Below, piece by piece: positions 3,960-58,459 of a stretch of DNA of 64,000 bases. Position numbers and translations under genes: made by a program. The stretch is from Burkholderiales bacterium. Lineage in GTDB: Bacteria > Pseudomonadota > Gammaproteobacteria > Burkholderiales > SG8-39. The DNA lies in contig JBBDXL010000101.1 in assembly GCA_040902335.1 (NCBI GenBank), positions 24,579 through 88,578 on the forward strand, given 5' to 3'. How positions within the stretch are numbered: position 1 is the first letter of the stretch; the number at the start of each line of letters is the position of its first letter. A model generated the notes under the pieces. It had not been told where the DNA came from and did no database searches. It was given only the letters and a program-made list of their open reading frames with translations.

Positions 3960-3973
3960 TTGATTTCAATCAA
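3960..3973. promoter_or_regulatory. FNR-type box TTGATTTCAATCAA (perfect consensus)
   Basis: Palindrome in the hemN / kinase divergent gap. The centre at 3966.5 is 42.5 bp from the hemN ATG 3924. Confidence 0.8.
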
Positions 3974-3998
3974 ACCCGGGCTGTTTCGCCATCCCGCG

Positions 3999-5246
3999 GT
4001 GATCGCCGCCGGGGGGGCGGCGCTCGCCGCGCTGCTGATCATGAACGGCGCCGCGTTCATCCGCGGCATGGACTCCCCCTGGCTGCTGGGCGCAGTCATC
4101 CTCACCGACCTGGCGGTGGTCGGCGTGAGCCTGGTCGCGGCGCTCTGGTCGATCGCGGTCTGGGGCGGGCGCAAGGACGTGAGCGAAGCGCGCCTGGACG
4201 CCATCGTCGACTCGGCGATGGACGCCATCCTCACCGTGGACGCGGCGCAGAACGTCGTGCTGTTCAACCGCGCCGCCGAGCAGATGTTCGGCGTGCGCCG
4301 CGACGACGCCCTCGGCTCGCCGCTCGACCGCTTCATTCCGCAACGCTTCCGCGGCGCGCACCGCGCGCACGTCGAGAAGTTCGGCCACACCGGCGTCACC
4401 AGCCGGCGCATGGGCGACCAGACGACTCTGTGGGCGCTGCGCGCCGACGGCAGCGAGTTCCCCATCGAGGCCTCGATCTCGCAGGCGGGCGAGCCGGGCA
4501 GCCGCTTCTTCACCGTGATCCTGCGCGATATCACGCTCCGCAAGCAGAACGAGGACACGATGCTCCGGCAGCAGCAGGAGCTGCGCGAGCTTTCGGCGCG
4601 CGTGCTGGAGGCGCGCGAGGAGGAAAAGACGCGCATCGCGCGCGAGCTGCACGACGAGCTGGGGCAGCTGCTCACGGCGCTCAAGATGGACCTCGCCTGG
4701 CTGCGCGAGCGCCTGCCCGAGACCGGGCCCGAGCTCGCGGCGCGCGCCGACGGCATGAGCGCGCTCCTCGACCGCACCGTGAGCTCGAGCCGGCGCATCG
4801 CCGCGGACCTGCGGCCGCTGATGCTCGACGACCTCGGGCTCGCCGAGGCGGCGCAATGGCTGGTGGAGGATTTCGCCAAGCGCTCCGCGATCCGGGTCGA
4901 GATGCAGGCGCCCGAAGACCTCGCGCTGGAGGCACTGTCCAAGGGTGCCGCCACGGCGCTGTACCGCGCGCTGCAGGAATCGCTCACCAACATCGCCCGC
5001 CATTCCGGGGCGAAAAGCGCCTGGATCGTGCTGGCGCAGGACAACGGCACGCTGCACCTGGAGATCGAGGACGACGGGCGCGGCATCGCCGCCGAGGACC
5101 TCGCGAAGGCGAGCTCGCTCGGCCTGAAGGGCATGCGCGAGCGCATCGCCTACTACGGCGGCTCGCTGGAAGTGGCGCGCGCGCCGCGCGGCGGCACGCG
5201 GCTGCGCGTGCGCATGCCGCTCCCCTCCGGCGGTGCCGAGGCATGA
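3999..5246 (+). CDS. PAS-domain sensor histidine kinase (HisKA_3 / NarX-DegS type)
   Basis: ORF 3924..5246. One or two N-terminal TM segments, a PAS region (DAIVDSAMDAILTVDAAQNVVLFNRAAEQMFG), an H-box (ELHDELGQLLTAL) and HATPase motifs (DDGRGI, GLKGMRER). The start is uncertain: GTG 3999, ATG 4041 or ATG 4068. ATG 3924 would abut the hemN start. Confidence 0.88.
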   Translation: MIAAGGAALAALLIMNGAAFIRGMDSPWLLGAVILTDLAVVGVSLVAALWSIAVWGGRKDVSEARLDAIVDSAMDAILTVDAAQNVVLFNRAAEQMFGVRRDDALGSPLDRFIPQRFRGAHRAHVEKFGHTGVTSRRMGDQTTLWALRADGSEFPIEASISQAGEPGSRFFTVILRDITLRKQNEDTMLRQQQELRELSARVLEAREEEKTRIARELHDELGQLLTALKMDLAWLRERLPETGPELAARADGMSALLDRTVSSSRRIAADLRPLMLDDLGLAEAAQWLVEDFAKRSAIRVEMQAPEDLALEALSKGAATALYRALQESLTNIARHSGAKSAWIVLAQDNGTLHLEIEDDGRGIAAEDLAKASSLGLKGMRERIAYYGGSLEVARAPRGGTRLRVRMPLPSGGAEA

Positions 5247-5866
5247 TCCGCGTCCTGCTCGCCGACGACCACCAGATCGTGCGCGACGGCCTGCGCGGCA
5301 TTCTCGCCGCGCAGGCCGACGTCGAGGTCGCGGGCGAGGCGGCGGACGGCGACCAGGCGCTCGCGCTGGTGCGCGCCAACGACTACGACGTGGCCGTGCT
5401 CGACCTGTCGATGCCGGGCCTCTCGGGGCTCGACCTCGTCAAGCGCCTGAAGCTGGAAAAGCCGAAGCTCAGGCTGCTCGTGCTCTCGATGCACGGCGAG
5501 CAGCAGTACGCCGTGCGCGCGCTCAAGGCCGGGGCGTCGGGCTATCTCACCAAGGACAGCGCATCGGCGCAGCTGATCGGCGCGCTGCGCAAGATCGCGG
5601 CCGGAGGCGTGCACGTCTCGGAGGCCACCGCCCTCGGGCTGGTGAGCGCGGCGAGCGGCGACGGCCCGCCGCACGCGCGCCTCTCGGACCGCGAGTTCGA
5701 GGTGTTGAAGCTGCTCGCCGGCGGCGCGAGCCCTACGGACATCGCGCGCAGGCTGCACCTGTCGGTGAAGACCGTGAGCACGCACAAGACGCGCGTGCTG
5801 GACAAGCTCGGTCTGGGCGGCACCGCGGAGCTGGTGCGCTACGCCCTGGAGCACAAGCTGGTCTAG
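5243..5866 (+). CDS. NarL/FixJ-family response regulator (REC + LuxR-type HTH)
   Basis: MIRVLLADDHQIVRDGL...DLSMPGLSG...LSDREFEVLKLLAGGASPTDIARRLHLSVKTVSTHKTRVLDKLG. The ATG overlaps the kinase stop (ATGA). Confidence 0.95.
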   Translation: MIRVLLADDHQIVRDGLRGILAAQADVEVAGEAADGDQALALVRANDYDVAVLDLSMPGLSGLDLVKRLKLEKPKLRLLVLSMHGEQQYAVRALKAGASGYLTKDSASAQLIGALRKIAAGGVHVSEATALGLVSAASGDGPPHARLSDREFEVLKLLAGGASPTDIARRLHLSVKTVSTHKTRVLDKLGLGGTAELVRYALEHKLV

Positions 5867-5934
5867 GACTTTTCCGAGCCGCGAATCAGCCGCCGCCGAT
5901 GGCCGGCGCCGCGGCGCGCCGCCACACTGGCGGC

Positions 5935-6312
5935 ATGCAAACGCGCACCGTCTATCTCGTAGAGGACTCGCCCCTGGTGAGCGAGCGCCTGCTCGAGATG
6001 CTCGAGGACGTGCCCGGCGTGCGCGTGACGGGCCACACCACACGCGCCGACGACGCGATCCGCGACATCCTCGCCGGGCGTCCCGACGTCGTGGTGCTCG
6101 ACATCCGGCTCGCGCAGGGCAGCGGCTTCGATGTGCTGCGTGCGCTGCACGATCAGGCGCCCGAGATCGAGGTCTACATGCTCTCCAGCTTCGCCTCCGA
6201 TCCGTACCGGCACCTCGCCGCGCGGCTCGGGGCGCGCGGCTTCTTCGACAAGGCCACCGAATTCACCCGCGTGCGCGACGCCGTCGCCGCGCGCGCCGCG
6301 CTCACGCACTGA
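5935..6312 (+). CDS. single-domain response regulator (CheY-like receiver only)
   Basis: C-terminal 125 aa of ORF 5233..6312, from ATG 5935: MQTRTVYLVEDSPLVSERLLEML...DVVVLDIRLAQGSGFDVLRAL. Confidence 0.85.
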   Translation: MQTRTVYLVEDSPLVSERLLEMLEDVPGVRVTGHTTRADDAIRDILAGRPDVVVLDIRLAQGSGFDVLRALHDQAPEIEVYMLSSFASDPYRHLAARLGARGFFDKATEFTRVRDAVAARAALTH

Positions 6313-6329: not shown

Positions 6330-7070
6330 ATGCACGCTGTCACCGCCATTCACGCCGCGCCCGCATCGAAGAAGTTCGAAGTCACCTGCTCGAGCTGCAA
6401 CCTGCGCGAGATGTGCCTGCCCGCCGGGCTGTGCGCCGAGGACCTCGAGCGCATCGAGAACGTGGTCTACGCGCGCCGGCGCCTGAAGCGCGGCGAGCCG
6501 CTGTTCAATGCCGGGGACAGCTTCAGCGCGGTGTACGCCATCCGCAGCGGCTTCTTCAAGACCAGCCTGCTCGACCCCGACGGGCGCGAGCAAGTCACCG
6601 GCTTCTTCATGGGCGGGGAGCTGCTCGGCATGGACGGCATCGGCGGCGCGCACCACGGCACCGCCATCGCGCTCGAGGACAGCGAGGTGTGCGTGCTGCC
6701 CTACGCGCTGATCGAGGACCTGTCGCGCGAGATCCCGGCGCTGCAGCGCCAGCTGCACGCGGTGCTGGCGCGCGAGATCGCGCGCGACCACGGCGTGATG
6801 ATGCTGCTCGGCTCGATGCGCGCCGAGGAGCGCCTGGCGACGTTCCTGCTCAACCTGTCCAGGCGCTTCGTGCGCCGCGGCTACTCCTCGACCGAGTTCC
6901 ACCTGCGCATGACGCGCGACGAGATCGGCAGCTACCTCGGCCTGAAGCTGGAGACGGTGAGCCGGCTGTTCTCCGCGTTCCAGAAGGACGGCCTGATCGA
7001 GGTGCAGCAGAAGCACGTGCGCATCCGCGAAATCGAGGGCCTGGAGCGGGTGCTCGCGACGCGGCACTGA
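6330..7070 (+). CDS. fnr: FNR (Crp/Fnr family, [4Fe-4S] oxygen-sensing transcription factor)
   Basis: 246 aa. N-terminal CSSCNLREMC aligns with E. coli FNR C20/C23/C29 and DSEVCVLPY with C122. The recognition helix ETVSRLF matches E. coli ETISRLL. An AAGAGAGGA Shine-Dalgarno sequence lies upstream. Confidence 0.95.
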   Translation: MHAVTAIHAAPASKKFEVTCSSCNLREMCLPAGLCAEDLERIENVVYARRRLKRGEPLFNAGDSFSAVYAIRSGFFKTSLLDPDGREQVTGFFMGGELLGMDGIGGAHHGTAIALEDSEVCVLPYALIEDLSREIPALQRQLHAVLAREIARDHGVMMLLGSMRAEERLATFLLNLSRRFVRRGYSSTEFHLRMTRDEIGSYLGLKLETVSRLFSAFQKDGLIEVQQKHVRIREIEGLERVLATRH

Positions 7071-7129: not shown

Positions 7130-8557
7130 ATGCGTAGCGCTGCGCACATCGCTCTGCTGCTCGCGCTGTATCTCGCGCTCGCCCTGCTGCCGCTCGCGCT
7201 CGCCGCGGCGCAGGGCCTGCCGCGCCGCCCATGGCTCGACGAGCTCTCCTCCGGGCTCGCCATGGCCGGATTCGCGGTGCTGCTGCTCGAGTTCGCGCTC
7301 TCGGGCCGCTACCGGCGGCTCTCGGCGCGCGTCGGCATGGACCTGACGATGCGCTTTCACCAGCTGATGGCGCTCGCCGCGCTCGCCTTCCTGCTGTTCC
7401 ACCCGTTCCTCTATGCGCCCGCCTTCAGCGAGCGTCCGGCGTACGGCGCGGGGACTGCGACGCGCGTCCTGCTCACGCCGGCGGCGACGGTGAGTGGCAT
7501 GCTCGCCTGGATGCTGCTGGTGATGCTGGTCGCCTTCGCCTGGTTCCGCACGCAGCTGCGCTGGTCCTACGAGGCCTGGCGGCTCTCGCACGGCCTCGGG
7601 GCGCTGGCGATCGCCTTCCTCGGCGCGCATCACACGCTCGACACCGGGCGCTACGCGCAGGACCCCTGGCTGCGCGGCGTCTGGCTCGCGGCCTGCGCGG
7701 CGGCGCTCGTCTCCCTCGCGCTGGTGTACCTGGTGAAGCCGCTCGCGCAGTCGCGCCGGCGCTGGCGCGTCGCCATCGTCGCGCCGGAGGCCGAGCGCAT
7801 CTGGCGCGTGGTGCTCGAGCCCGACACCGCGCGCGATTTCCGCTTCGCCGCCGGCCAGTTCGTCTGGCTCAAGCTGCACCGTGCGCTCGGCCGCATCACC
7901 GAGCACCCGTTCTCCATCGCCTCGGCGCCGGGGCAGCTGCCGCGCCTGCAGTTCCTGGTGAAGGAGGCGGGCGACTTCACCCGCTGCATCGGCCGCGTCG
8001 CACCCGGCGCCGCGGCCTATGTCGACGGCCCATACGGCGACCTCACGCTCGCCGGCCGCGGCGGCGCGGGCATCGTCCTCATCGCCGGCGGCGTCGGCAT
8101 CGCCCCGATCCTCGGCCTGGCGCGCGACCTCGCCGCGACGCACGACCCGCGGCCGCTCACAATCGTCTATGCCGATCGCACGGCGGCGCAGCTCGCGGCG
8201 CGCGCCGAGCTGGAGGTGATGGCGCGTGCGCCCGGGCGCGAGCTGCACCTGGTGCTCGATGAGCCGCCCGCGGACTGGAGCGGCCTGCGCGGCCGTCTCG
8301 ACACGGCGAATCTCAGAGCCTGCCTGCCGCGCAGCGGCGCCGCCGAGTGGCTGTATTTCGTCTGCGGGCCGCCCGCGATGATCGACGCGGTAGAAATGAG
8401 CCTGGCCGAGCTCGGCGTGCCCCTGGCGAGAATCGCTTCCGAGCGCTTCGTCTACGACAGCGGCATCGCCACGCCGCGCGAGCGGCTGACGCGCGCGGTG
8501 ATCGCCGGGGTAATCGCGGTGCAGGTACTCGCCGTGGTAGCTTTCGTGCTGCGATGA
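7130..8557 (+). CDS. NOX/ferric-reductase-family flavocytochrome (6-TM bis-heme domain + FAD/NAD(P)H dehydrogenase domain)
   Basis: 475 aa. His pairs with NOX-type spacing: FHQLMALAALAFLLFH has 13 residues between the His, and SHGLGALAIAFLGAH has 12. Also HPFSIAS (FAD), GPYG, GGVGIAP (NAD(P)H), CGPPAM, and an extra C-terminal TM helix. Confidence 0.85.
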   Translation: MRSAAHIALLLALYLALALLPLALAAAQGLPRRPWLDELSSGLAMAGFAVLLLEFALSGRYRRLSARVGMDLTMRFHQLMALAALAFLLFHPFLYAPAFSERPAYGAGTATRVLLTPAATVSGMLAWMLLVMLVAFAWFRTQLRWSYEAWRLSHGLGALAIAFLGAHHTLDTGRYAQDPWLRGVWLAACAAALVSLALVYLVKPLAQSRRRWRVAIVAPEAERIWRVVLEPDTARDFRFAAGQFVWLKLHRALGRITEHPFSIASAPGQLPRLQFLVKEAGDFTRCIGRVAPGAAAYVDGPYGDLTLAGRGGAGIVLIAGGVGIAPILGLARDLAATHDPRPLTIVYADRTAAQLAARAELEVMARAPGRELHLVLDEPPADWSGLRGRLDTANLRACLPRSGAAEWLYFVCGPPAMIDAVEMSLAELGVPLARIASERFVYDSGIATPRERLTRAVIAGVIAVQVLAVVAFVLR

Positions 8558-9408
8558 GCCTGCGCTCCCTGCTCGCCGCCACCGATTTTTCCGAGCACGC
8601 GCAGCTCGCGGCGCTGCGCGCGGCGCTGCTCGCGCGCGAGCTCGGCGCACGCCGGTGCGTGCTGCTGCACGTGGCGCTGGAGCGCGCGCTGCGCCCGGCC
8701 GACCGGGCGCGCGTGACGCGCCGGCTGCGGCGGGAGCTGGCGCAGCAGGCGCGCGCGCTGCAGGCGCAGACCGGCGCCGCGGTCGTGCCGCGCCTCGCGT
8801 GCGGGCCGGTGGTGGAGACCCTGGCACGCGCCGCGCGACACTTCGACCTGGTGGTGGTCGGCGCGCAGGGCGCGCATCCGCTGCGCGACTTCGCCATCGG
8901 CACGAGCGCCGAGCGGCTGCTGCGCCGGATCCATCGCCCGGTGCTGGTGGTAAAGCGCCGCCCCGCGGGCGCTTACCGCCGGGTGGTGGTGCCGGTCGAT
9001 TTCTCCGGCGCCTCGAAGGCCTCGCTCGCGCTGGCGCATGCCGTCGCGCCGGGCGCCGAGCTGAGCGTGCTGCACGCGTTCGAGGTGCCCTACGAGGGCA
9101 AGCTGCGCGTCGCGGGCGTGGCCGAGGACGACGTGCTGCGCTACCGCAGGCTCGCCCGCGAGCGGGCACGTGCGGACATGGACACGTTGCTCGGCGGCGC
9201 CGGCTCGGGCGTCGTGCGCCTGATCGCGCACGGCTATCCGCCGAAGCTGATCGCCCGCACCCAGGCCGAGATCGGCGCCGACCTGGTCGCGATCGGCAAG
9301 CACGGCCGGTCGGCGCTCGAGGACCTGCTGATCGGCAGCGTCACGCTGCATACCCTGTCGGCGGTGGATTGCGACGTGCTGGTGACGCCGCGATCTCCGC
9401 GGCGATGA
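8554..9408 (+). CDS. universal stress protein, tandem UspA domains
   Basis: From ATG 8554, which overlaps the upstream stop (ATGA). MSLRSLLAATDFSEHA...VVVGAQG...GTSAERLLRRIHRPVLVV..., and a second domain ending IGKHGRSALEDLLIGSVTLHTLSAVDCDVLV. Confidence 0.85.
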   Translation: MSLRSLLAATDFSEHAQLAALRAALLARELGARRCVLLHVALERALRPADRARVTRRLRRELAQQARALQAQTGAAVVPRLACGPVVETLARAARHFDLVVVGAQGAHPLRDFAIGTSAERLLRRIHRPVLVVKRRPAGAYRRVVVPVDFSGASKASLALAHAVAPGAELSVLHAFEVPYEGKLRVAGVAEDDVLRYRRLARERARADMDTLLGGAGSGVVRLIAHGYPPKLIARTQAEIGADLVAIGKHGRSALEDLLIGSVTLHTLSAVDCDVLVTPRSPRR

Positions 9409-11023: not shown

Positions 11024-11917
11024 CTAGGCGACGAGCAGTACGGGCACGGGGCTCGCCGCCGCCGCCTTCAGCGCCACCGAGCCGAAGAGCGCGTGGTGCG
11101 CGGCGCCGCGCCCGCGCGTGCCGAGGGCGAGGAGCTCGCACTGCGTGTCGCGCGCCAGGCGCGCGAGCTCGGCCGCCGGGTCGCCCGCGACCAGGTGCGC
11201 CTCGTGCTTTACGCCGGCGCGGGACAGCAGGTCGCGCGCCGCCTCGAGGGCCTGCGCGCCCGAGTCGCCGCGCCACTGCGCGAGCGCGTCCTCGTGCGGC
11301 GGCATCATCTTTTCCAGCAGCGTGAGCGGCGGCTGCACATGCGCGAGCTGGATCTCGAGCTCGCCCAGCCAGCCGCGCCAGGAAAGCAGACGCTCCAGCG
11401 CGCGCAGCGCGGGCGGCGAGCCGTCCATGGCGCACAGGATGCGCAGGCGCTCGCCCAGCGCGCGCGGCAGCGCGGCCTCGGGCCCGACGATCAGCGTGGG
11501 CGCGACCCCGCCGTGCGCGACGCGCATGGCCGCCGAGCCGAGCGCGAAGCCGTGCAGCGCGCCGTGCCCGCGCGTGCCCATGACGATCGCCTGCGCGCCC
11601 GAAGCGCGCGCATCGTCGAGCAGCGCCGGGGCCGGCAGGCCGAAGCGCACCTCGCCGCGCGCCGCGATCCCCGCCTGCGCCAGGCGCTCGAGCGCGGGCG
11701 CGAGCGCGCCGCGCCCCGCCTCGGCGAGCGCCGCGTCGAGGGCCGCGGGATCGATGCCCATGCCCGGGAACAGCGTCACCGGCCGCTGCTGCACGTTGAC
11801 CGCGAGCACCTCGAGCCGCCCGCGCTCCCCACGATAGCCCGCCAGCAGCTGCGCGGCGCGCTGCGCCGCCGGCGAGCCGTCGAAGGCGAGCACCAGCCTG
11901 ACCGGACTTTCGCTCAT
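11024..11917 (-). CDS. universal stress protein, tandem UspA domains
   Basis: From ATG 11917 (MSESPVRLVLAFDGSPAAQRA...IVMGTRGHGALHGFALGSAAMRV...LALGTRGRGAAHHALFGSVALK). The ATG overlaps the ATPase stop (ATGA). Confidence 0.85.
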   Translation of the reverse strand: MSESPVRLVLAFDGSPAAQRAAQLLAGYRGERGRLEVLAVNVQQRPVTLFPGMGIDPAALDAALAEAGRGALAPALERLAQAGIAARGEVRFGLPAPALLDDARASGAQAIVMGTRGHGALHGFALGSAAMRVAHGGVAPTLIVGPEAALPRALGERLRILCAMDGSPPALRALERLLSWRGWLGELEIQLAHVQPPLTLLEKMMPPHEDALAQWRGDSGAQALEAARDLLSRAGVKHEAHLVAGDPAAELARLARDTQCELLALGTRGRGAAHHALFGSVALKAAAASPVPVLLVA

Positions 11918-14613
11918 ATGTCCTCCTGCACGACCTGCAGGTCCGCCACCCCCAGGCGGCGCAGCAGCCACTTCTCACCCTCCAGCAGCAGCAGCATGAC
12001 CACGCCGATGCCCACGATCATCGCGCCATCGGCGAGCGACACCGGCCGCGTGGCGAACCACAGTTGCATGAACGGCGCATAGGTGAAGGCAAGCTGCGCG
12101 ACGATCACCGCGGCGAGTGCGATCAGCACCGCCGGCGTGCCGAGCGCGCCGCGCGGCGTGATCGAGGCCTGGTGCAGGTAGCGCACGTTGAACAGGTAGA
12201 AGATTTCCATCACCACGAGCATGTTCACCACCAGGGTGCGCGCCGTCTCCAGGTCGTTGCCCCGCGCGAGCGAATGGAAGAACATCGCCAGCGCGGCGCC
12301 GAGGAACAGGAACGATACCAGCGCCACGCGCCAAAGGAGGAACGGCGACAGCAGCGGCGCCTGCGGCGGGCGCGGCGGGCGGCGCATCACGCCGGGCTCC
12401 GCGGGCTCGAACGCGAGCACCAGCCCGAGCGTCACCGAGGTGACGAGGTTGATCCACAGGATCTGCACCGCGCTCACCGGCAGCACGAAGCCGAAGGCGA
12501 TCGCCGCGATCACGGTGAGCGCCTCGCCGCCGTTGGTGGGCAGCGTCCAGGCGATCACCTTGCGGATGTTGTCGTAGACCGTGCGCCCTTCGTGCACCGC
12601 GTTGACGATGGAGGCGAAATTGTCGTCGGCGAGCACCATCTCCGCGGCTTCCTTGGCGGCTTCCGTGCCCTTGATGCCCATCGCCACGCCGACATCGGCC
12701 TGCTTGAGCGAGGGGGCGTCGTTCACGCCGTCGCCGGTCATCGCCACCACCGCGCCACCCGCCTGCAGCGCGCGCACGATGCGCAGCTTGTGCTCGGGGC
12801 TGGTGCGCGCGAACACCGTGGAGCGCCCCACGGCTTCGGCGAACTCGACCTCGTCCATCGCGTCCAGCTCCGCGCCGGTCACCGCCTGCGGATCGTCCGC
12901 CAGCCGGAGCTGCCGGGCGATGGTCGCGGCCGTCGCCGCGTGGTCGCCGGTGATCATCTTCGCCTCGATGCCCGCCGCGCGGCACTCGGCAACCGCAGCG
13001 ATCGCCTCCTCGCGCGGCGGATCGATGAAGCCGGCGATGCCGAGGAACTCGAGCTCGCTGGCGACGTCCGCCTTGCGCAAGCGCTGCTGCGCGCCCGGCA
13101 GCCGCTTGCACGCGAAGCCGAGCACGCGCTCGCCCGCCGAAGCGGCCTCGGCGATGCGCTTCGCCCAGGCCTCGCGCTCCTCGTCGCCCAGACCCGCCAT
13201 GGCGAGCAACGGCTCGGGCGCGCCCTTCACGTACGCCACCGCGTCGCCGTCGGGCCCGCGGTGCAGCGTGGCCATGTAGCGGTGCGCCGCGTCGAACGGA
13301 ATCTCGTCCAGGCGCGGCCACTCGGCGCGCGCGTGCTCCGGGTTGAGGCCGGTCTTCATGGCGAGCGCCACCAGCGCGCCCTCCATCGGGTCGCCTTCCA
13401 CCGTCCAGGCGCCGTCGCGCTGGCGCAGCTGCGCGTCGTTGCACAGCAGGCCGCAGCGCACCAGCGGCGCGGCCGCCGCGATCGCGGCGGCGTCGTCGTC
13501 GTGGCCGACGGCCTCGAGATCGCCCTCGGGCGCATAACCCGAGCCGCTCACCGCCACGTGGTGCCCGCCGGCGATCACGCGCGTCGCCGTCATCTCGTTC
13601 CGGGTCAGCGTGCCGGTCTTGTCCGAGCAGATCACCGAGGTGGCGCCGAGCGTCTCCACCGCGGGCAGGCGCCGGATGATGGCGTTTCGCGCCGCCATGC
13701 GCTGCACGCCGATGGCGAGCGTGATGGTGATGACCGCGGGCAGCCCTTCGGGCACCGCGCCTACGGCGAGCGCCACCACCGCCATCAGCGCCTCCGGCCA
13801 GCCGTAGCCGCGCACCCCGACGGCGAAGGCGAACACCACTGCCGAGACGGCGAGCGCGACCCACGTGAAGATCAGGCCGAAACGATTGATCTGGCGCAGC
13901 AGCGGCGTGGTGAGCTGCTCCACGCTCTGCAGGAGCGAGCTGATGCGGCCGATCTCGGTGCGCATGCCGGTGGCCACCACCACGCCGCTCGCCTGGCCCG
14001 CGGCGACCAGCGTCCCCGAGTAGGCCATGCCGCGCCGATCGCCGAGCGGCGCATCGGCCGCCACCGGCTCCTCCAGTTTTTCCGCGGCCACCGATTCGCC
14101 CGTGAGCAGCGCCTCGTCGATGAGCAATCCCCGCGCGCGCACCAACCGCAGGTCCGCGGGCACGCGGTCGCCCGCCTCCAGCAGCACGAGATCGCCCGGG
14201 ACCAGCTCCGCCACGGCCACCGACTGGCGGGCACCGTCGCGCCGCACGCTCGCCCTGGGCGAGATCATCCTACGCATCGCCTCGAGCGCGGCTTCCGCCT
14301 TGCCCTCCTGCACGAAGCCGATGACGGCGTTGACCACGACCACGGCGGCGATCACCGCGGCGTCGATGAAATGGGCGAGGATCGCCGCCGCCGCCGCGGC
14401 GACGAGCAGGAAGTAGATGAGCGCGTTGTTGAACTGCGCGAGGAAACGCAGGATCGGGTGCCGGCGCGGCGCTTCCGGCAGCGCGTTCGGGCCGTGCCTC
14501 TTCAGGCGCTCGGCGGCTTCCCCGGCCGACAGGCCCTGCGGGCCGCTGGCGAGGGCGCGCAGCGCCTCCTGCGCGGGAATCGCGTGCCAGTCCTGTCGGG
14601 TAAAGTCGCTCAA
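11914..14613 (-). CDS. P2-type cation-translocating P-type ATPase (SERCA/PMCA-like)
   Basis: CSDKTGTLT phosphorylation motif, TGES, PEGLPAVITITLAIG, TGDGVNDAPSLKQADVGVAMG. The ORF track extends it to 15333, but that part overlaps mgtE. I place the start at TTG 14613, which overlaps the mgtE stop (TTGA) and gives MSDFTRQDWHAIPAQEAL. Confidence 0.93.
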   Translation of the reverse strand: MSDFTRQDWHAIPAQEALRALASGPQGLSAGEAAERLKRHGPNALPEAPRRHPILRFLAQFNNALIYFLLVAAAAAAILAHFIDAAVIAAVVVVNAVIGFVQEGKAEAALEAMRRMISPRASVRRDGARQSVAVAELVPGDLVLLEAGDRVPADLRLVRARGLLIDEALLTGESVAAEKLEEPVAADAPLGDRRGMAYSGTLVAAGQASGVVVATGMRTEIGRISSLLQSVEQLTTPLLRQINRFGLIFTWVALAVSAVVFAFAVGVRGYGWPEALMAVVALAVGAVPEGLPAVITITLAIGVQRMAARNAIIRRLPAVETLGATSVICSDKTGTLTRNEMTATRVIAGGHHVAVSGSGYAPEGDLEAVGHDDDAAAIAAAAPLVRCGLLCNDAQLRQRDGAWTVEGDPMEGALVALAMKTGLNPEHARAEWPRLDEIPFDAAHRYMATLHRGPDGDAVAYVKGAPEPLLAMAGLGDEEREAWAKRIAEAASAGERVLGFACKRLPGAQQRLRKADVASELEFLGIAGFIDPPREEAIAAVAECRAAGIEAKMITGDHAATAATIARQLRLADDPQAVTGAELDAMDEVEFAEAVGRSTVFARTSPEHKLRIVRALQAGGAVVAMTGDGVNDAPSLKQADVGVAMGIKGTEAAKEAAEMVLADDNFASIVNAVHEGRTVYDNIRKVIAWTLPTNGGEALTVIAAIAFGFVLPVSAVQILWINLVTSVTLGLVLAFEPAEPGVMRRPPRPPQAPLLSPFLLWRVALVSFLFLGAALAMFFHSLARGNDLETARTLVVNMLVVMEIFYLFNVRYLHQASITPRGALGTPAVLIALAAVIVAQLAFTYAPFMQLWFATRPVSLADGAMIVGIGVVMLLLLEGEKWLLRRLGVADLQVVQEDI

Positions 14614-15572: not shown

Positions 15573-15808
15573 GCCGACTTGTTCGCGAGGTAGTCCACGA
15601 TCTGCTCGAGCGTGCCGAGCTTGCGGTAGTCGGCCTCGGGGATCTCGATCCTGAGGCGCTCGTTGAGGGCGACGAGGAAGTTGAGCCAGTCCATCGAATC
15701 GAGGTCGACCTGGTCGCGCAGGGGCTTCGCCGGCGCGACGTCCTCCAGCTCGGGCGCGATGCGCTTGAGCTCCGCGAGCACGATCTTCCTGATTTCCTCG
15801 GCATCCAT
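15569..15808 (-). CDS. acyl carrier protein (phosphopantetheine-binding)
   Basis: 79-80 aa. The DLDSMDWLNFLVAL motif contains the Ser for the 4'-PP arm. ATG 15808 shares one base with the E2 stop. Confidence 0.8.
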   Translation of the reverse strand: MDAEEIRKIVLAELKRIAPELEDVAPAKPLRDQVDLDSMDWLNFLVALNERLRIEIPEADYRKLGTLEQIVDYLANKSA

Positions 15809-16953: not shown

Positions 16954-17000
16954 GGCGGTCAACCTCAGGGGCTATGGTGCGTTGCACGCCTGCGCCGGAC

Positions 17001-17014
17001 TTGACCTGGATCAA
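17001..17014. promoter_or_regulatory. FNR-type box TTGACCTGGATCAA
   Basis: Perfect TTGAY-N4-RTCAA. The centre at 17007.5 is 54.5 bp upstream of the E2 ATG 16953, which allows a leader carrying a Shine-Dalgarno sequence. Confidence 0.7.
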
Positions 17015-17099
17015 CTGCGGGGCAAGCCCCGGGTGGGACGCGACGTCGTTTCTGGTGCTCTACAATTCGAACCGCAACGCGACAAAGAACCAGACGCAG

Positions 17100-21737: not shown

Positions 21738-23452
<1,715 letters not shown>

Positions 23453-23488
23453 CAAGCGCCCTGCCGACCTGCCCGCAACAATCCTGCA

Positions 23489-28850: not shown

Positions 28851-28864
28851 TTGACCTTGGTCAA
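28851..28864. promoter_or_regulatory. FNR-type box TTGACCTTGGTCAA
   Basis: Centre at 28857.5. It is 41.5 bp from ATG 28816 on the minus strand, with TACCTT at -12 to -7. It is 55.5 bp from ATG 28913 on the plus strand, which has an AAGGAGG Shine-Dalgarno sequence. Confidence 0.75.
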
Positions 28865-28912: not shown

Positions 28913-29287
28913 ATGGCACTGAACCGCAGGGAAACGATCGAGCTCGCCAGCGCGATCGAGGAGCGCCGCGAGGCGCTGGCCGCGGAAATCCGCCGCGAGG
29001 TGGCGCGCGCGCGCAACGAGCCGTTCGCGGAAGTCGCGGGCGCGGTGCACGACACCGGCGACGAGGCGCTCGCCGACCTGGTGGCCGACGTCGACAACGC
29101 GGAAGTGACGCGCGACCTCGCCGAGCTGCGCGAGCTGGAGGCCGCGCGCGCGCGCATCGCCGACGGCTCCTACGGCGTGTGCGCCGACTGCGGCGCCGAC
29201 ATTCCGGTGGCGCGCCTGCGCGCGCAGCTTGGGGCGCTGCGCTGCATCGCCTGCCAGGAGCGCCACGAGAAGACCTTCCGCAGCTAG
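28913..29287 (+). CDS. TraR/DksA-family C4 zinc-finger protein
   Basis: MALNRRE... from ATG 28913, with a strong Shine-Dalgarno sequence (caAGGAGGcacgATG). C-terminal CADCG...CIAC. Confidence 0.85.
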   Translation: MALNRRETIELASAIEERREALAAEIRREVARARNEPFAEVAGAVHDTGDEALADLVADVDNAEVTRDLAELRELEAARARIADGSYGVCADCGADIPVARLRAQLGALRCIACQERHEKTFRS

Positions 29288-30597: not shown

Positions 30598-30611
30598 TTG
30601 ACGCAAGTCAA
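30598..30611. promoter_or_regulatory. FNR-type box TTGACGCAAGTCAA
   Basis: The centre at 30604.5 is 40.5 bp from the NAPRTase ATG 30564. TAGGGT lies at -12 to -7. Confidence 0.75.
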
Positions 30612-30670
30612 CGGCGCGTGCTGCGAACGCCGGAGGTCAGCGAGTGACCTGTTCGCCCGGCTTTTTTGCC

Positions 30671-34247: not shown

Positions 34248-34261
34248 TTGACCGGGATCAA
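34248..34261. promoter_or_regulatory. FNR-type box TTGACCGGGATCAA shared by divergent genes
   Basis: Centre at 34254.5. The polX ATG 34212 is at -42.5. ATG 34295 is at +40.5, with TAGCCT at -12 to -7. Confidence 0.75.
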
Positions 34262-34848: not shown

Positions 34849-34862
34849 TTGATGGAGATCAA
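34849..34862. promoter_or_regulatory. FNR-type box TTGATGGAGATCAA (perfect consensus)
   Basis: The centre at 34855.5 is 40.5 bp from ATG 34896 on the plus strand. It is only 23.5 bp from ATG 34832 on the minus strand. Confidence 0.75.
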
Positions 34863-35254: not shown

Positions 35255-36141
35255 ACCCCGCCGCCCTTCTCGCCGGCGACGCGCACCCGCAGCTCGCGCA
35301 GGACATCGCGCGCGAAGCCGGGTTGCCGCTCCTGCCCGCGCAGATCTCCGCCTTCGCCGACGGCGAGACGCGCGTGAAGATCGACGCCGACGTGCAGGGC
35401 GTTCACCTCGGCATCGTGCAGCCGACCCCGGCGCCCGTGGGCGAGCGGCTGGTCACGCTCGCGCTCCTCGCCGACGCCGCGCGCGCCGCGGGGGCGGCGA
35501 GCGTCACCGCGCTCATGCCCTACTTCGGCTTCGCGCGCCAGGACGTGCGCGGCGCGAGCGGCGAGCCGCGCTCGGCGCAGCTCGCCGCGCGCCTGCTCGC
35601 CGCCGCGGGCATCGAGCGCGTGGTGGTGCTCGAGCTGCACTCGAGCGCGCTGGAGAGCGCTTTTCCGATGCCCGTCACGCAGTTGCGCGCCGACGATGCC
35701 GTGCTGCCGCTGCTGCACGGGCGCGGCTACACGCTGGTCTCGCCCGACGCGGGCGGCATGAAGCGCGCGCAGCGCTACGCGATGGCGCTCGGCGCGCCGC
35801 TCGCCGCGGTCGCCAAGCAGCGCACCGGCGTCGACGCCGCGGTGCCGCTGCAAGTGCTGGGCGAGGTGCGCGGCGCCTCCTGCCTGCTGGTCGACGACAT
35901 GGCGAGCACCGGCCGCACGCTCGCGGGCGCGGCGCAGGCGCTCGCCGCCGCGGGCGCGTCCGAGGTGCACGCGTTCTTCGTGCACGCGGTGATGGCGCCG
36001 GGCGCGCTCGAGCGCATCCGCGCGGCGGGCGTGCGCCGCATTCTGACCACCGACAGCGTGCGCCCCGTGACCGACCCGGGGGTCGAAGGGGTGCCGGTGG
36101 CGCCGCTGTTCGCGGCCGCACTGCGCGCCGGCTTGCGCTAG
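35251..36141 (+). CDS. ribose-phosphate pyrophosphokinase (PRPP synthetase) family protein
   Basis: 296 aa. FADGETRVKI, MPYFGFARQD, LVSPDAGGMKRA, LLVDDMASTGRTL. The ATG overlaps the upstream stop (ATGA). Confidence 0.85.
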   Translation: MNPAALLAGDAHPQLAQDIAREAGLPLLPAQISAFADGETRVKIDADVQGVHLGIVQPTPAPVGERLVTLALLADAARAAGAASVTALMPYFGFARQDVRGASGEPRSAQLAARLLAAAGIERVVVLELHSSALESAFPMPVTQLRADDAVLPLLHGRGYTLVSPDAGGMKRAQRYAMALGAPLAAVAKQRTGVDAAVPLQVLGEVRGASCLLVDDMASTGRTLAGAAQALAAAGASEVHAFFVHAVMAPGALERIRAAGVRRILTTDSVRPVTDPGVEGVPVAPLFAAALRAGLR

Positions 36142-36146
36142 ATCAA
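36133..36146. promoter_or_regulatory. imperfect FNR-type box TTGCGCTAGATCAA
   Basis: The left half-site has two mismatches. The centre at 36139.5 is 40.5 bp from ATG 36180, with AAGAAT at -12 to -7. The box overlaps the stop of the Prs-like gene. Confidence 0.5.
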
Positions 36147-41244: not shown

Positions 41245-41258
41245 TTGACGCAGATCAA
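41245..41258. promoter_or_regulatory. FNR-type box TTGACGCAGATCAA shared by divergent genes
   Basis: Centre at 41251.5. ATG 41210 is at -41.5 on the minus strand and ATG 41292 is at +40.5 on the plus strand. Confidence 0.75.
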
Positions 41259-41626: not shown

Positions 41627-41640
41627 TTGACTTACGTCAA
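41627..41640. promoter_or_regulatory. FNR-type box TTGACTTACGTCAA
   Basis: The centre at 41633.5 is 67.5 bp upstream of ATG 41701, which has an AGGAG Shine-Dalgarno sequence. Confidence 0.7.
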
Positions 41641-41700: not shown

Positions 41701-42249
41701 ATGCAACTCCCCGTGCAGATCACCTACCGCGGCATGGAAAGCTCCGCGGCCATCGAGGACGCGGTGCGCGACCGGGCCGCCAAGCTGGAGCAGTTCCATG
41801 CGCGCATCATGAGCTGCCGCGTGGTGATCGAGCAGCCCGCGCGCCACAAGACGAAGGGCAAGGAGTTCGTGGTGCACCTCGACCTCAAGGTGCCCGGCGG
41901 CGAGATCGCGGTGACCCGCGACCATCACGAGGACGTGTACGTCGCGCTGCGCGACGCGTTCGACGCCGCGCGCCGCAAGCTCGAGGACTTCGCGCGCGAG
42001 AGCCGCGGCGACGTCAAGCAGCACGAGCCCACGCAATCGGGCACCGTGGCGCGCATCCTGGCCGGGGAAGGCTACGGCTTCATCGCCACCGCCGACGGCC
42101 GCGAGCTGTACTTCTCGCGCGAGAACGTGGTGACGCCGCCGTTCGAGCACCTCGCCGCGGGCACCGCGGTGCATTTCATCGAGGAAGCGGCCGCCGAAGG
42201 CCCGCAGGCGAAGCGCGTCAGCGCGCGCCACGGCGCGGCGGGCGGCTGA
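41701..42249 (+). CDS. HPF/RaiA (S30AE) ribosome-hibernation domain fused to a cold-shock (CSD/OB) domain
   Basis: N-terminal part: MQLPVQITYRGMESSAAIEDAVRDRAAKLEQF...VVHLDLKVPGGEIAV...DVYVALRDAFDAARRKLEDF. C-terminal part: GTVARILAGEGYGFIATADGRELYFSRENVV (RNP1-like GYGFI). Confidence 0.8.
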   Translation: MQLPVQITYRGMESSAAIEDAVRDRAAKLEQFHARIMSCRVVIEQPARHKTKGKEFVVHLDLKVPGGEIAVTRDHHEDVYVALRDAFDAARRKLEDFARESRGDVKQHEPTQSGTVARILAGEGYGFIATADGRELYFSRENVVTPPFEHLAAGTAVHFIEEAAAEGPQAKRVSARHGAAGG

Positions 42250-42542: not shown

Positions 42543-42556
42543 TTGACTTGCGTCAA
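42543..42556. promoter_or_regulatory. FNR-type box TTGACTTGCGTCAA
   Basis: Centre at 42549.5. The ftsH ATG 42592 is at +42.5, with TAGTGT at -13 to -8. ATG 42490 is at -59.5 on the minus strand and has a Shine-Dalgarno sequence. Confidence 0.75.
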
Positions 42557-42591: not shown

Positions 42592-44385
42592 ATGGAAACG
42601 CGCACGCGCTTCAACGTCGCCTACCTCGTGTTCGCGCTGGTCGCGCTCATGCTCGTGCAGCGCTGGTGGCAGGAGGCGCAGTCGATCGACGTCGTGCCCT
42701 ACAGCGAGTTCGAGCAAATGCTCGCGGAGGGCCGCATCGCGGAGATCACCGTGGGCGAACGCCATATCGTCGGCAAGCTTAAGCAGCCCGAGGGGCGCAA
42801 GACCACGGTGGCGGCGAACCGGGTGGAGCCCGAGCTCGCCGCGCGGCTCGAGAAGTACGGCGTGCCCTACACGCGCCAGGTCGAGAGCACGGTCCTGCGG
42901 GACCTGCTCTCGTGGGTGGTGCCCGCGCTCGTCTTCTTCGGTGTGTGGATGCTGCTCGCGCGGCGCTTCGCCGGCCAGCAGGGCCTGGGCGGCTTCATGA
43001 GCATCGGCAAGAGCCGCGCCAAGGTTTACGTGGAACGCCAGACCGGCGTCACCTTCGCCGACGTGGCGGGCGTCGACGAGGCGAAGGCCGAGCTGCAAGA
43101 GGTGATCGAGTTCCTCAAGGACCCGGCCAAGTACGGGCGGCTCGGCGCGCGCGTGCCGAAGGGCATCCTGCTGGTGGGGCCGCCGGGCACCGGCAAGACG
43201 CTGCTCGCGCGCGCGGTGGCGGGCGAGGCGGGCGTGCCCTTCTTCTCCATCTCCGGCGCCGAGTTCGTGGAGATGTTCGTCGGCGTGGGCGCGGCGAGGG
43301 TCCGGGATCTGTTCGATCAGGCGCGGCAGAAGGCGCCCGCCATCATCTTCATCGACGAGCTGGACGCGCTCGGGCGCGCGCGCGGCACCTACGGCCTGGG
43401 CGGGCACGACGAGAAGGAGCAGACGCTGAACCAGCTCCTTTCCGAGCTCGACGGCTTCGATCCGTCCACCGGGGTGGTGCTGCTCGCCGCCACCAACCGG
43501 CCCGAGATCCTCGACCCGGCGCTGCTGCGCGCGGGGCGTTTCGATCGCCAGGTGCTCGTGGACCGCCCCGACAAGAAGGGGCGCATCCAGATCCTCGAGG
43601 TGCACGCGAAGAAGATCCGGCTCGCCGCGGGCGTCTCCATCGAGCAGGCGGCGGCGCTCACGCCCGGCTTCTCCGGCGCCGACCTCGCCAACCTGGTGAA
43701 CGAGGCGGCGCTCCTCGCCACGCGCCGCGGCGCCGACGCGGTGTCGCTCGAGGACTTCACCCTGGCGGTGGAGCGCATCGTCGCAGGGCTGGAGAAGAAG
43801 AGCCGCGTGCTGAACGAGACCGAGCGGCGTGTCGTTGCGCACCACGAGATGGGCCACGCGCTGGTCGCCATGGCGCTGCCGGGAACCGACCCGGTGCACA
43901 AGGTGTCCATCATCCCGCGCGGCGTGGGCGCGCTCGGCTACACCATCCAGCGCCCGACCGAGGACCGCTTCCTGATGACGCGCGAGGAGCTGGAGAACAA
44001 GATGGCGGTGCTGCTCGGCGGCCGCGCCGCCGAGGAAGTGTGCTTCGGGCGGCTGTCGACGGGAGCCGCCGACGATCTCGTCAAGGTGGCGAACATCGCG
44101 CGCGGCATGGTGATGCGCTACGGCATGGTCGAGTCGCTCGGCCCCCTCGCCTACGAGGAGGAGCGCGCGCCGTTTCTCGGCGGCGTGATGGCGCCCGCGC
44201 CGCGCGAGTACAGCGAGCAGACCGCGCGCGAGATCGACGTCGCGGTGCGCGAGATCGTGAAGGCGGCGCACGACAAGGCGTTCGGCCTCCTCACGCGCGA
44301 CAAGGCGCTGCTCGAGCGCGGCGCGGCGCTGCTGCTGCAGAAGGAGACGCTCGCCGAGGACGAGCTCGCCGCATTGAGAAGGTAA
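42592..44385 (+). CDS. ftsH: ATP-dependent zinc metalloprotease FtsH
   Basis: Two TM segments, Walker A GPPGTGKT, Walker [12 protein letters not shown] region, and zinc site HEMGHAL. Start is ATG 42592 or GTG 42583. Confidence 0.95.
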
Positions 44386-57542: not shown

Positions 57543-57563
57543 TTCTACCGGCCCGGCGCGACC

Positions 57564-58394
57564 TCAGTGCGACATCAGCACCGGCACCGTCATCGCCTCG
57601 AGCAGGGTGCGCGTCGCCCCGCCGAGCACCATCTCGCGCACGCGCGCGTGCCCGTAGGCGCCCATGACGATCAGGTCCGCGGCGACGTCGGCGGCGCGCG
57701 ACAGGATCTGCGAGCCGACGTCGTAGCCCGCGCCGCTCTGGCGCGCCACCGTCACCTTCACGCCGTGGCGCGCGAGGAACAGGCCGACGTCGGCCCCGGG
57801 CTGCTCGCCGTGATGGCGCTGGCCCTTCTCCGGGTCGAAAGCGCACACCTCGACCGCCGCGGCGCGCTGCAGGAACGGCAGCGCGTCGGTGACCGCGCGC
57901 GCCGCCTCGCGCCCCGCGTCCCAGGCGACGAGCACGCGCTTGCCGAGCGCGGGGAAACGCCCCGCGTAGGGCACGAACAGCACCGGGCGGCCGGCGGAGA
58001 ACACCAGCTCGTCGGCGAGGCCGCGCAGGCCGCCTTCGTCCCCGGCCTCGGGCTGGCCCGCCACCACCAGGTCGGCGTAGCGCGCGGACAGGCGCACGGC
58101 CGCCGCCGGGTCGGCCTGCGAGCTGCGCCATTCGGCGCGCCCGCCGAAGCGCCGCGAGGCGTCGCGAAAGCGGCGCTCGGCCTCGCCCAGCATCTCGGCG
58201 TTGCGCTTCTCGAGCAAGTCGCGCAGCAGCGGCCCGCCCTCGGCCAGCGCGTACGACGGCAGCCGCGGGACACCGGGTGCGAACAGCCCGACGACGTGGG
58301 CGTCGAACTCGTCGGCGAGGCTGCAGGCAAGCTCGAGCCGCTCCGTGCTGCGCGGCTGGTGATCGAGGTGCACGAGGATCGTCTTGTAGGTCAT
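57564..58394 (-). CDS. universal stress protein, tandem UspA domains
   Basis: 276 aa. MTYKTILVHLDH...LVVAGQ...VMGAYGHARVREMVLGGATRTLLEAMTVPVLMSH. GGAGAG Shine-Dalgarno sequence. Confidence 0.9.
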   Translation of the reverse strand: MTYKTILVHLDHQPRSTERLELACSLADEFDAHVVGLFAPGVPRLPSYALAEGGPLLRDLLEKRNAEMLGEAERRFRDASRRFGGRAEWRSSQADPAAAVRLSARYADLVVAGQPEAGDEGGLRGLADELVFSAGRPVLFVPYAGRFPALGKRVLVAWDAGREAARAVTDALPFLQRAAAVEVCAFDPEKGQRHHGEQPGADVGLFLARHGVKVTVARQSGAGYDVGSQILSRAADVAADLIVMGAYGHARVREMVLGGATRTLLEAMTVPVLMSH

Positions 58395-58445
58395 CGTTCT
58401 CTCCAGGTTCCTGCGGCCATCATGCCCGACGCGCTCCTGCGGGGA

Positions 58446-58459
58446 TTGACTTAGGTCAA
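58446..58459. promoter_or_regulatory. FNR-type box TTGACTTAGGTCAA
   Basis: Centre at 58452.5. The USP ATG 58394 is at -58.5 and has a Shine-Dalgarno sequence. ATG 58493 is at +40.5, with TAGGCT at -12 to -7. Confidence 0.75.

Follow-up and report, generated by a model that had tools for sequence, protein, structure and literature searches.

Why should one 64,000-nucleotide stretch of GC-rich DNA carry 13 perfect copies of the palindrome TTGAY-N4-RTCAA, and which protein reads them? The stretch (hereafter the window, in whose own numbering positions are given) comes from an uncultured member of the Burkholderiales (assembly GCA_040902335.1, contig JBBDXL010000101.1, positions 24,579 to 88,578 of the forward strand), and a preliminary description had matched the palindromes to an FNR regulator encoded within it. 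The most probable answer, to which we assign a probability of roughly 80%, is that the 13 palindromes are operators of a CRP/FNR-family activator with an E--SR recognition helix, likeliest the FNR encoded at 6330-7070, and that the window, from an uncultured, high-GC lineage of the Burkholderiales, holds a densely packed regulon island for survival at low oxygen, akin in kind to the Burkholderia cenocepacia lxa locus.

A direct scan of the window (62-75% GC) returned exactly 13 perfect sites, each at the coordinate previously described (listed below), against a mean of 0.02 and a maximum of 1 in 100 dinucleotide-preserving shuffles, the same expectation per 64 kb as had been estimated by hand. 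Allowing one mismatch gave 16 sites versus 1.14 expected, adding 50984, 51012 and 49094; the last, within the coding sequence for an ABC ATPase, is probably a chance match. Two mismatches gave 48 sites versus 18.5 expected, and because of this background the sites at 36133 and 39208 are individually weak and not significant at that stringency. Thus, of four imperfect sites proposed earlier, 50984 and 51012 hold up with one mismatch each, whereas 36133 and 39208 have two.

The palindromes are strongly biased toward intergenic DNA. Genes were called by codon-position GC, since longest-ORF (open reading frame) lists are useless at this GC content, and annotated with Pfam and NCBIfam; start codons were refined using domain alignments and codon-position GC (GC3). 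With refined starts all 13 sites are intergenic, in a window of which 5.4% is intergenic (P ~4e-17). The preliminary description had counted 12 out of 13 as intergenic. Longest-ORF calls leave five sites (17001, 23442, 28851, 41245 and 52984) inside N-terminal ORF extensions. For two of these five extensions, those of the AMP-ligase and the solute-binding protein, the longest-ORF start lies far upstream of where the Pfam domain begins; for the other three (g16, g25 and g53) the refined starts rest on weak coding signal or on site geometry. Public metagenome gene calls begin the sensor-kinase ORF of two relative loci at the TTG of the FNR box itself (L081, 7203; L083, 7599; compare 3960 in the window). 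Such swallowing of boxes by longest-ORF and public calls is an annotation artefact that hides operators in high-GC genomes.

Outside their half-sites the 13 palindromes have nothing in common in their flanks, and their 4-nucleotide (nt) spacers differ, so that they are not copies of a repeat element. Among 278 half-sites (139 TTGA-N6-TCAA sites from the window and its high-GC relatives), position 5 was C in 159, T in 99, G in 20 and A in none; taking the background as roughly 35% C and 15% T, enrichment is ~2.4-fold for T and ~1.6-fold for C. A shifted preference for TTGAC half-sites, as first suggested, is thus rejected: with T the more enriched base, the pattern is the usual pyrimidine preference of FNR/Anr/FixK boxes in a GC-rich genome.

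Predicted FNR boxes of the window (distances in nt from box centre to start codon; SD, Shine-Dalgarno sequence; aa, amino acids):
3960..3973: TTGATTTCAATCAA, between hemN (- strand) and the kinase operon (+ strand); centre 42.5 nt from the hemN ATG
17001..17014: perfect match, upstream of the E2 acyltransferase operon (-)
23442..23455: common to the divergent AMP-ligase (-) and GNAT (+) genes; GTG at 41.5 nt, ATG at 40.5 nt
28851..28864: common to a 164-aa NMD3-like gene (-; ATG at 41.5 nt) and a DksA/TraR-like gene (+; ATG at 55.5 nt, TAGGCT -10, AAGGAGG SD)
30598..30611: nicotinate phosphoribosyltransferase (NAPRTase) gene (-); ATG at 40.5 nt, with a TAGGGT -10 ending 6 nt before it
34248..34261: PolX-PHP gene (-; ATG at 42.5 nt), possibly also a doubtful 105-aa ORF (+; ATG at 40.5 nt, TAGCCT -10)
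34849..34862: 53-aa ORF/phosphoribosyl pyrophosphate (PRPP) synthetase operon (+; ATG at 40.5 nt), adjoining a 93-aa ORF (-)
36133..36146: probable weak box with two mismatches and supportive geometry, phosphoribosyltransferase gene (+); ATG at 40.5 nt, AAGAAT ending 6 nt before it
41245..41258: common to a solute-binding protein gene (-; ATG at 41.5 nt) and a 107-aa ORF (+; ATG at 40.5 nt)
41627..41640: gene for HPF fused to a cold-shock domain (HPF-CSD; +); ATG at 67.5 nt, AGGAG SD
42543..42556: common to FtsH (+; ATG at 42.5 nt, TAGTGT -10) and a 79-aa ORF (-; ATG at 59.5 nt, with SD)
50984..50997: probable box with one mismatch, ABC transporter operon (-); 64.5 nt to the solute-binding protein ATG, AGGGAG SD
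52984..52997: perfect match, upstream of archease-RtcB (-)
53288..53301: adjoining a TPP enzyme gene (+; ATG at 34.5 nt); ATG of a doubtful 111-aa ORF (-) at 44.5 nt
58446..58459: common to a 191-aa ORF (+; ATG at 40.5 nt, TAGGCT -10) and the operon of a universal stress protein (Usp) and CFA synthase (-; Usp ATG at 58.5 nt, GGAGAG SD)

The likeliest reader of these boxes lies near the left end of the window, next to a set of two-component genes:
3999..5246, +: sensor kinase with two transmembrane segments, a FixL-type heme-PAS domain, HisKA_3 and HATPase_c; start uncertain (GTG 3999 or ATG 4041)
5243..5866, +: NarL/FixJ-type response regulator (receiver and GerE domains)
5899..6312, +: orphan receiver-only protein
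6330..7070, +: FNR/Anr-type regulator with C20, C23, C29 and C121 and an ETVSR helix

By its sequence the protein at 6330-7070 is of true FNR/Anr type. PF00027, PF13545 and PF00325 all score above cutoff (a cNMP-binding-like domain and a C-terminal Crp-type helix-turn-helix), as does the NCBIfam Fnr model NF008365 (233.9 bits versus a cutoff of 228), whereas with the FnrL, FixK and CRP models its scores are far short of the cutoffs. Aliivibrio fischeri FNR aligns with it over the full length (E = 1e-56), and its four cysteines, an N-terminal C-X2-C-X5-C (C20, C23, C29) and the central C121, align with those of the A. fischeri structures (5E44/5CVR). The recognition helix reported earlier is present, ETVSRLF aligning with ETISRLL of A. 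fischeri FNR, and an identical protein named Fnr occurs in an NCBI Burkholderiales metagenome-assembled genome (MAG).

The PAS domain of the kinase shows similarity to the FixL and DosP heme domains (E = 3e-14 to 1e-9; for FixL, 1D06 at 3e-14 and 1DP6 at 1.5e-12), with the proximal histidine aligned ('RGAHRAHVEKF' versus 'YRHEHDGYLQRY') and a threonine at what we take to be the position of the distal arginine of BjFixL. The transmitter is of the DesK/NarX-type HisKA_3 family, and the kinase scores 62 bits with the FixL equivalog model, whose cutoff is 850. Given the gap of only 17 bp between the orphan receiver gene and fnr, and the SD of fnr's own, the genes for kinase, response regulator, receiver, FNR, ferric reductase and Usp look like one operon starting beside the box at 3960. 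Thus, fnr is probably co-transcribed with the heme-PAS kinase, the NarL-type regulator and the orphan receiver, the last of which occurs in one or two copies in relatives. The make-up of this operon, with its heme-PAS kinase, and its position beside the hemN box suggest autoregulation and a second oxygen or redox input.

Promoter geometry and predicted leaderless transcripts

The distances between boxes and start codons are far from uniform. In the window, 12 of 26 site orientations place the start codon of a coding-like ORF (11 ATG, 1 GTG) at 40.5-42.5 nt from the box centre. Over 119 sites from the window and high-GC relative loci, coding-frame ATGs peak at 40.5-43.5 nt, with 31 in four bins versus about 6 expected (~1.5 per bin elsewhere; P = 3e-13), and a second, broader peak at 62-68 nt corresponds to leadered genes. 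When the 31 promoters of the first peak were aligned on their ATG, a -10 signal emerged at -12 to -7 in otherwise GC-rich sequence, with A at -11 in 14 (P = 6e-5) and T at -7 in 17 (P = 3e-7), corresponding to the two most conserved positions of the sigma-70 -10 hexamer; TAGGCT, TAGGGT, TAGTGT and AACAAT are typical examples. An SD-like element precedes only 1 of 14 leaderless-type genes of the window compared with 16 of 50 others, and genes with the longer spacing (HPF, DksA-like, orf79 and Usp) carry SDs.

The hexamer signal is concentrated at starts associated with FNR boxes. TAnnnT at the leaderless offset (12) is found at 8 of 30 such starts versus 13 of 1040 other candidate starts (P = 2e-8), and as the excess amounts to only ~1% among the 1040, a lineage generally rich in leaderless genes was rejected as an explanation. 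Of the 13 boxes, nine or ten separate divergent genes, and in three pairs (AMP-ligase/GNAT, solute-binding protein/orf107, and PolX/doubtful ORF) the start codons are only 81-83 bp apart and symmetric about a single box, so that one dimer could serve both directions.

Taken together, these features suggest the following mechanism. When oxygen falls, holo-FNR would dimerise and bind each box, which would replace the -35 element about 41.5 bp upstream of the transcription start site (TSS; class II activation), with a TAnnnT-like -10 hexamer beginning ~29.5 nt from the box centre. At about half of the promoters the TSS would coincide with the ATG, and the mRNAs would therefore be leaderless; at the others a leader of roughly 15-25 nt would carry an SD, and other genes in these loci may likewise have ordinary leadered, SD-bearing mRNAs. 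At several divergent pairs one FNR dimer could drive both genes. The simplest reading of the geometry is thus a TSS at or within 1-2 nt of the ATG, giving leaderless mRNAs from class II promoters in both directions from one dimer.

As predicted from sequence, the leaderless and bidirectional architecture is statistically strong, and we lean slightly toward a TSS at the ATG. A broader proposal, that the hypoxia programme is largely leaderless and built from minimal back-to-back promoters spaced ~82 bp from each other with one FNR dimer in common, a design that may allow translation by 70S ribosomes under HPF-CSD shutdown, is speculative and in our view doubtful, its functional coupling of leaderless design to HPF-CSD being much less certain than the architecture. 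If true, it would provide a proteobacterial counterpart to the link between leaderless mRNAs and dormancy discussed for mycobacteria. Among the papers listed by our literature search, none linked leaderless mRNAs to FNR, Anr or FixK. If confirmed, such compact promoters would be a useful natural system for studying how one dimer drives two promoters and what might lead stress regulons to favour leaderless mRNAs.

At one further position the same signature occurs apart from any FNR box. The start codons of the FGGY kinase (-) and GpsA (+) genes lie 17 bp apart (60497-60515), and a TAGCAT stops 6 nt short of the FGGY ATG. Unless the starts are mis-called, both genes would be leaderless, each with its promoter inside the coding sequence of the other.

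Conservation in relatives and competing explanations

The closest relatives of HPF-CSD, at 82-89% identity, are found in uncultured Betaproteobacteria and Burkholderiales MAGs, and the motif is again frequent in the high-GC members of 80 relative loci (123 sites in 1.18 Mb). FNR homologues at 96%, 88% and 82% identity reside in syntenic neighbourhoods (MgtC-...-HemN / kinase-response regulator-receiver-FNR-...), and in three loci (L081, L083 and L085) the hemN box lies exactly 42.5 nt from the hemN ATG with a different spacer each time. A box is located ~68-87 bp upstream of the HPF ATG in many loci, again with varying spacers, and is also kept upstream of 7 of 9 DksA-like orthologues, 6 of 12 orf79 orthologues, NAPRTase (40.5 nt in L034, 41.5 nt in L001) and orf107 (40.5 nt in L004, 42.5 nt in L002). 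The box at 23442 recurs in identical form in L081, and relatives have a box closer to the archease start than the window does. FtsH and PolX orthologues in the relatives have no box upstream; their upstream sequence resembles coding sequence, so that they probably lie inside operons, and on this reading the box would go with the heads of transcription units, not with particular genes.

A number of observations weigh against the FNR interpretation. Several orthologues in relatives lack a perfect box upstream. Four boxes of the window are off the class II distance from one neighbour: 3960 is 32.5 or 74.5 nt from the kinase start, with no clear -10; 34849 is centred only 23.5 nt from the orf93 ATG (-); 52984 sits at a non-canonical 125.5 nt from the archease ATG; and the 34.5 nt between 53288 and the TPP enzyme start is not class II spacing. 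Orf105 (34295-34612) and orf111 (52915-53250), which face boxes at 34248 and 53288, have modest GC3 and no orthologues in the relative loci compared, and may not be genes. A few starts were refined using site geometry itself, which is partly circular and makes the intergenic P value somewhat optimistic. Finally, FNR binding, the response to oxygen, TSSs, leaderless status and autoregulation are all things that we infer from DNA and protein sequence.

Off-distance sites may repress, act in the other direction alone, or reflect wrong start calls. The box of the orf93/orf53 pair of L034 is symmetric, at 41.5 nt from orf93 and 40.5 nt from orf53, and comparison with L034 (5604) makes the arrangement in the window look like an 18-bp deletion, which should remove orf93 from class II control or make the box act on it as a repressor site. 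In the window, orf93 has a TAAGAT -10 two bases past box 34849. The TPP enzyme orthologue in L004 has its box at 55.5 nt. For box 17001 the candidate starts are an ATG at 54.5 nt with GAGG before it and a TTG at 45.5 nt, and L081 has no perfect or one-mismatch box at this place.

One alternative, which we consider unlikely, is that the boxes are read mainly or jointly by a Dnr/NnrR-like CRP/FNR paralogue and that the island answers nitric oxide (NO) or another signal and not, by way of the in-window FNR, oxygen itself. Three relative loci encode a 229-235 aa protein with cNMP_binding and HTH_Crp_2 domains (L081, 1974-2681; L083, 1991-2680; L085, 2651-3346), ~1.3 kb beyond MgtC, which marks the left edge of the window. 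Only 23% identical to the FNR at 6330-7070, this second regulator has no N-terminal cysteine cluster, and its helix ETFSRAL is of the E--SR type, so that it could bind the same boxes, a point against assigning them to FNR alone. In Pseudomonas, Anr and Dnr boxes are not known to be distinguishable by sequence. Three Anr-like candidates exist for the lxa motif in B. cenocepacia (PMC3721108). With such a paralogue in relatives, the assignment of boxes to FNR alone is not secure; the pairing of FNR-type boxes with a matching in-window FNR, as first described, is borne out by sequence analysis in its two parts, but the boxes are not assignable to this FNR alone. On the other side, the second regulator gene lies outside the window, its presence in this genome following from synteny only, whereas the in-window FNR is a textbook match to the motif and its gene probably co-transcribed beside a box, and hemN is a classical FNR/Anr target. 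Since Dnr-type regulators are themselves under FNR/Anr control in known cascades, FNR would remain the master regulator. In the relatives, a cytochrome b/Fer4 gene and a COX1/NorB-like gene come before the second regulator gene, and a Usp gene with a perfect box of its own at 61.5-63.5 nt upstream comes after it. This regulator would seem to form an NO branch, of Dnr/NnrR type, in the same network.

Less probable still is that many boxes are repressor, roadblock or class I sites, the ATGs ~41 nt away not being TSSs and leaders arising from promoters elsewhere. The four off-distance spacings (23.5, 32.5, 34.5 and 125.5 nt) would fit this, as would the two-mismatch site at 39208, which overlaps the AAGAAT -10 region of the M28 peptidase gene, but the sharp spacing peak at 40.5-43.5 nt, the -10 signal at -11 and -7 and the absence of SDs at those genes speak for activation, and no second promoter would fit into intergenic regions of 81-83 bp. 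Mapped lxa TSSs in B. cenocepacia also lie ~41 nt from homologous boxes. Lastly, palindromes are typical restriction-modification (RM) targets and an RM system (Eco57I-like methylase and XamI-like endonuclease) is encoded at ~17-19.6 kb, yet a non-regulatory origin as a dispersed repeat or mobile-element end, RM target or compositional accident is scarcely credible given the shuffle mean of 0.02, unrelated flanks and spacers, copies that are all intergenic and phased with start codons, box positions kept in relatives without this RM system (on which flanks, intergenic bias and conservation the repeat-element and RM-target readings were rejected), and Rfam and tRNA scans of the window that were empty, with no riboswitch, small RNA or integration-site signature.

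Gene content of the island

With FNR activation as the preferred interpretation, the genes adjoining the boxes can be read as a candidate regulon. By predicted function, the gene content is a coherent hypoxia, maintenance and dormancy set:
left end, -: MgtC, hemerythrin, DsbD_2 and HemN
2527..3924, -: hemN, heading hemN-DsbD_2-hemerythrin-MgtC (TIGR00538 at 586 bits, alignment starting at residue 11); predicted leaderless
after fnr, +: ferric-reductase-like protein, then tandem Usp
8554..9408, +: this tandem-domain Usp, at the end of the kinase-fnr-ferric reductase operon; synteny in relatives
right of that Usp, -: Na/H exchanger, tandem Usp, P-type ATPase, MgtE-like protein, acyl carrier protein (ACP), E2 acyltransferase
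11024..14613, -: P-type cation ATPase, then tandem Usp
16974-19618, +: lower-GC RM pair (Eco57I-like methylase and XamI-like endonuclease)
right of the RM pair, -: E1-beta, E1-alpha, AMP-ligase
right of the AMP-ligase: GNAT, HAD, trehalose-phosphatase and GH65 proteins
right of GH65: CBS, NMD3-like, DksA/TraR-like, NAPRTase, LOG-type protein, PolX-PHP
29284..30564, -: NAPRTase; predicted leaderless
32509..34212, -: PolX with PHP domain; predicted leaderless
right of PolX: small ORFs, PRPP synthetase, phosphoribosyltransferase, AMP-ligase
right of the second AMP-ligase: VapBC, M28 peptidase, solute-binding protein
41701..42249, +: HPF-CSD fusion protein
42592..44385, +: FtsH paralogue; predicted leaderless from ATG 42592
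right of FtsH: PspC, hydrolase, kinases, ABC transporter
51005..52865, -: archease-RtcB RNA ligase operon
right of archease: TPP enzyme, FAD protein, CFA synthase, Usp
57564..58394, -: Usp heading the Usp-CFA synthase-FAD protein operon
right end: FGGY kinase, GpsA

Several of these loci have features of their own. The short HPF/YfiA-type hibernation factor with its C-terminal cold-shock domain is a fusion kept in dozens of Betaproteobacteria MAGs, and other relatives (Nitrotoga, Nitrosomonadaceae) match the HPF part alone (~110 aa). The FtsH paralogue has 75-80% DNA identity to plasmid ftsH genes of Phenylobacterium, Brucella, Roseomonas, Paracoccus and Agrobacterium, and 17 Klebsiella plasmid records match it as well, which suggests a horizontally mobile, stress-type FtsH. 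That the island as a whole is a known plasmid module was rejected, as a megablast of 17 kb against plasmids matched the FtsH paralogue alone (alphaproteobacterial and Klebsiella plasmids).

On the minus strand at 15569-23407, genes for AMP-ligase, E1-alpha, E1-beta, E2, a stand-alone ACP, an MgtE-like protein and a P-type ATPase form an unusual operon that is kept in relatives, and the placement of ACP and AMP-ligase beside a 2-oxoacid dehydrogenase complex suggests an uncharacterised acyl-transfer pathway under FNR control. The RM pair (GC 0.62-0.66) occupies the opposite strand between E1-beta and E2 of this cluster, and in L081 a VapBC toxin-antitoxin pair (15842-16470) fills the same slot, apparently a hot spot at which selfish or defence modules insert. 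Immediately right of box 30598 lies a 400-bp lower-GC stretch (30612-31019) with no convincing gene; a 119-aa ORF within it (30644-31003) has no Pfam match and a weak coding signal. On its plus strand a terminator-like hairpin (30640-30656) followed by a T-run (to 30666) overlaps the TSS predicted in that direction from the box, and an FNR-driven small RNA was considered here and is not claimed.

Comparison with known low-oxygen systems

The window provides a clean, sequence-defined candidate FNR regulon in an uncultured soil or sediment Burkholderiales lineage, and suggests that low-oxygen survival islands of the lxa type extend well beyond Burkholderia with different cargo, here ribosome hibernation, repair of RNA and DNA, salvage of NAD and PRPP, protein quality control and cation homeostasis. 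The core island type is already known from Burkholderia; the promoter layout is the new part of the finding.

The closest known system is lxa, a locus in B. cenocepacia J2315 (BCAM0275a-BCAM0323), which comprises 50 low-oxygen-induced genes (Sass et al. 2013, PMC3721108). Its motif, found at 17 intergenic points, shares TGA-N6-TCA with Anr/Fnr boxes, and the regulator acting on it is itself only inferred (PMC3721108). An Anr-related regulator is encoded beside a response regulator and kinase, together with six Usps, a cation ATPase adjoining a Usp, a protease of FtsH type, a LOG protein ('lysine decarboxylase') and an ABC transporter (PMC3721108). Compared by annotation alone, the window resembles lxa in being a betaproteobacterial island of ~50 genes in which an Anr/Fnr-like inverted repeat recurs between genes (at 17 places in lxa, at least 13 here), with an Anr-related regulator beside response regulator and kinase, several Usps, FtsH, LOG and ABC transporter genes, and divergent pairs sharing one box; the pairing of a cation P-type ATPase with a Usp is also common to both (BCAM0318/0319 in lxa, 11024..14613 here; PMC3721108 Table 4). 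Low-oxygen induction is shown for lxa and predicted for the window.

Differential RNA sequencing of J2315 places lxa boxes ~40.5-41.5 nt from mapped TSSs, and a single box is shared by the divergent BCAM0294/BCAM0295, whose TSSs are separated by 83 bp (PMC4603805 supplement). In the nearest known system, therefore, both class II geometry and the sharing of a box by two directions have an experimental footing. The leaders in lxa measure 21-173 nt (BCAM0278 -114, BCAM0280 -42, BCAM0286 -173/-38, BCAM0290 -38, BCAM0295 -74, BCAM0312 -21), so that the six TSSs retrieved are all leadered (PMC4603805 supplement), whereas in the window about half of the operon-leading genes have their ATG at the predicted TSS. 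Across the J2315 genome, 114 leaderless transcripts were reported, 24 of them tRNAs and ~90 protein-coding, in a text that makes no mention of lxa (PMC4603805). Gene content overlaps in part: the window adds HPF-CSD, RtcB-archease, PolX, NAPRTase/PRPP synthetase and HemN, an AMP-ligase and an ACP together with a 2-oxoacid dehydrogenase complex, and also trehalose enzymes. Among its ~65 genes we found none of the lxa hallmarks class II ribonucleotide reductase, polyhydroxyalkanoate synthase, alcohol dehydrogenases, acetate kinase/phosphotransacetylase and alpha-crystallin, which could lie outside the window.

Class II promoters of Escherichia coli FNR and Pseudomonas aeruginosa Anr (TTGAT-N4-ATCAA at -41.5) are alike in regulator type, box and the -10 distance predicted here. 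hemN and Usp genes, common to the window, are reportedly classical FNR/Anr targets (Trunk et al. 2010, as cited in PMC3721108). In those organisms, however, targets are scattered over the chromosome, serve mainly anaerobic respiration and fermentation and have leadered mRNAs, whereas the window gathers at least 13 boxes in 55 kb at maintenance and repair targets, many with mRNAs predicted to be leaderless.

The FixL-FixJ-FixK(2) systems of rhizobia, Caulobacter and Burkholderia dolosa likewise bring together a heme-PAS kinase with FixJ/NarL-family and CRP/FNR-family regulators, and the FixK box TTGA-N6-TCAA is the same motif as the boxes of the window, whose orphan receiver recalls Caulobacter FixT. 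They differ in that the transmitter of the window is HisKA_3 (DesK/NarX type) and not of FixL type, its regulator is a cysteine-cluster FNR and not a cluster-less FixK, and its fnr gene seems to share a transcript with the two-component genes and not to be a separate target of theirs. Finally, the DosR/DevR regulon of Mycobacterium tuberculosis, a Usp-rich hypoxia survival programme with a ribosome-stabilising factor, heme-sensor kinases and a NarL-type regulator, in a group where leaderless mRNAs are prominent, is a functional analogue only: its regulator, DNA motif and phylum are unrelated, and the motif of the window is of FNR type.

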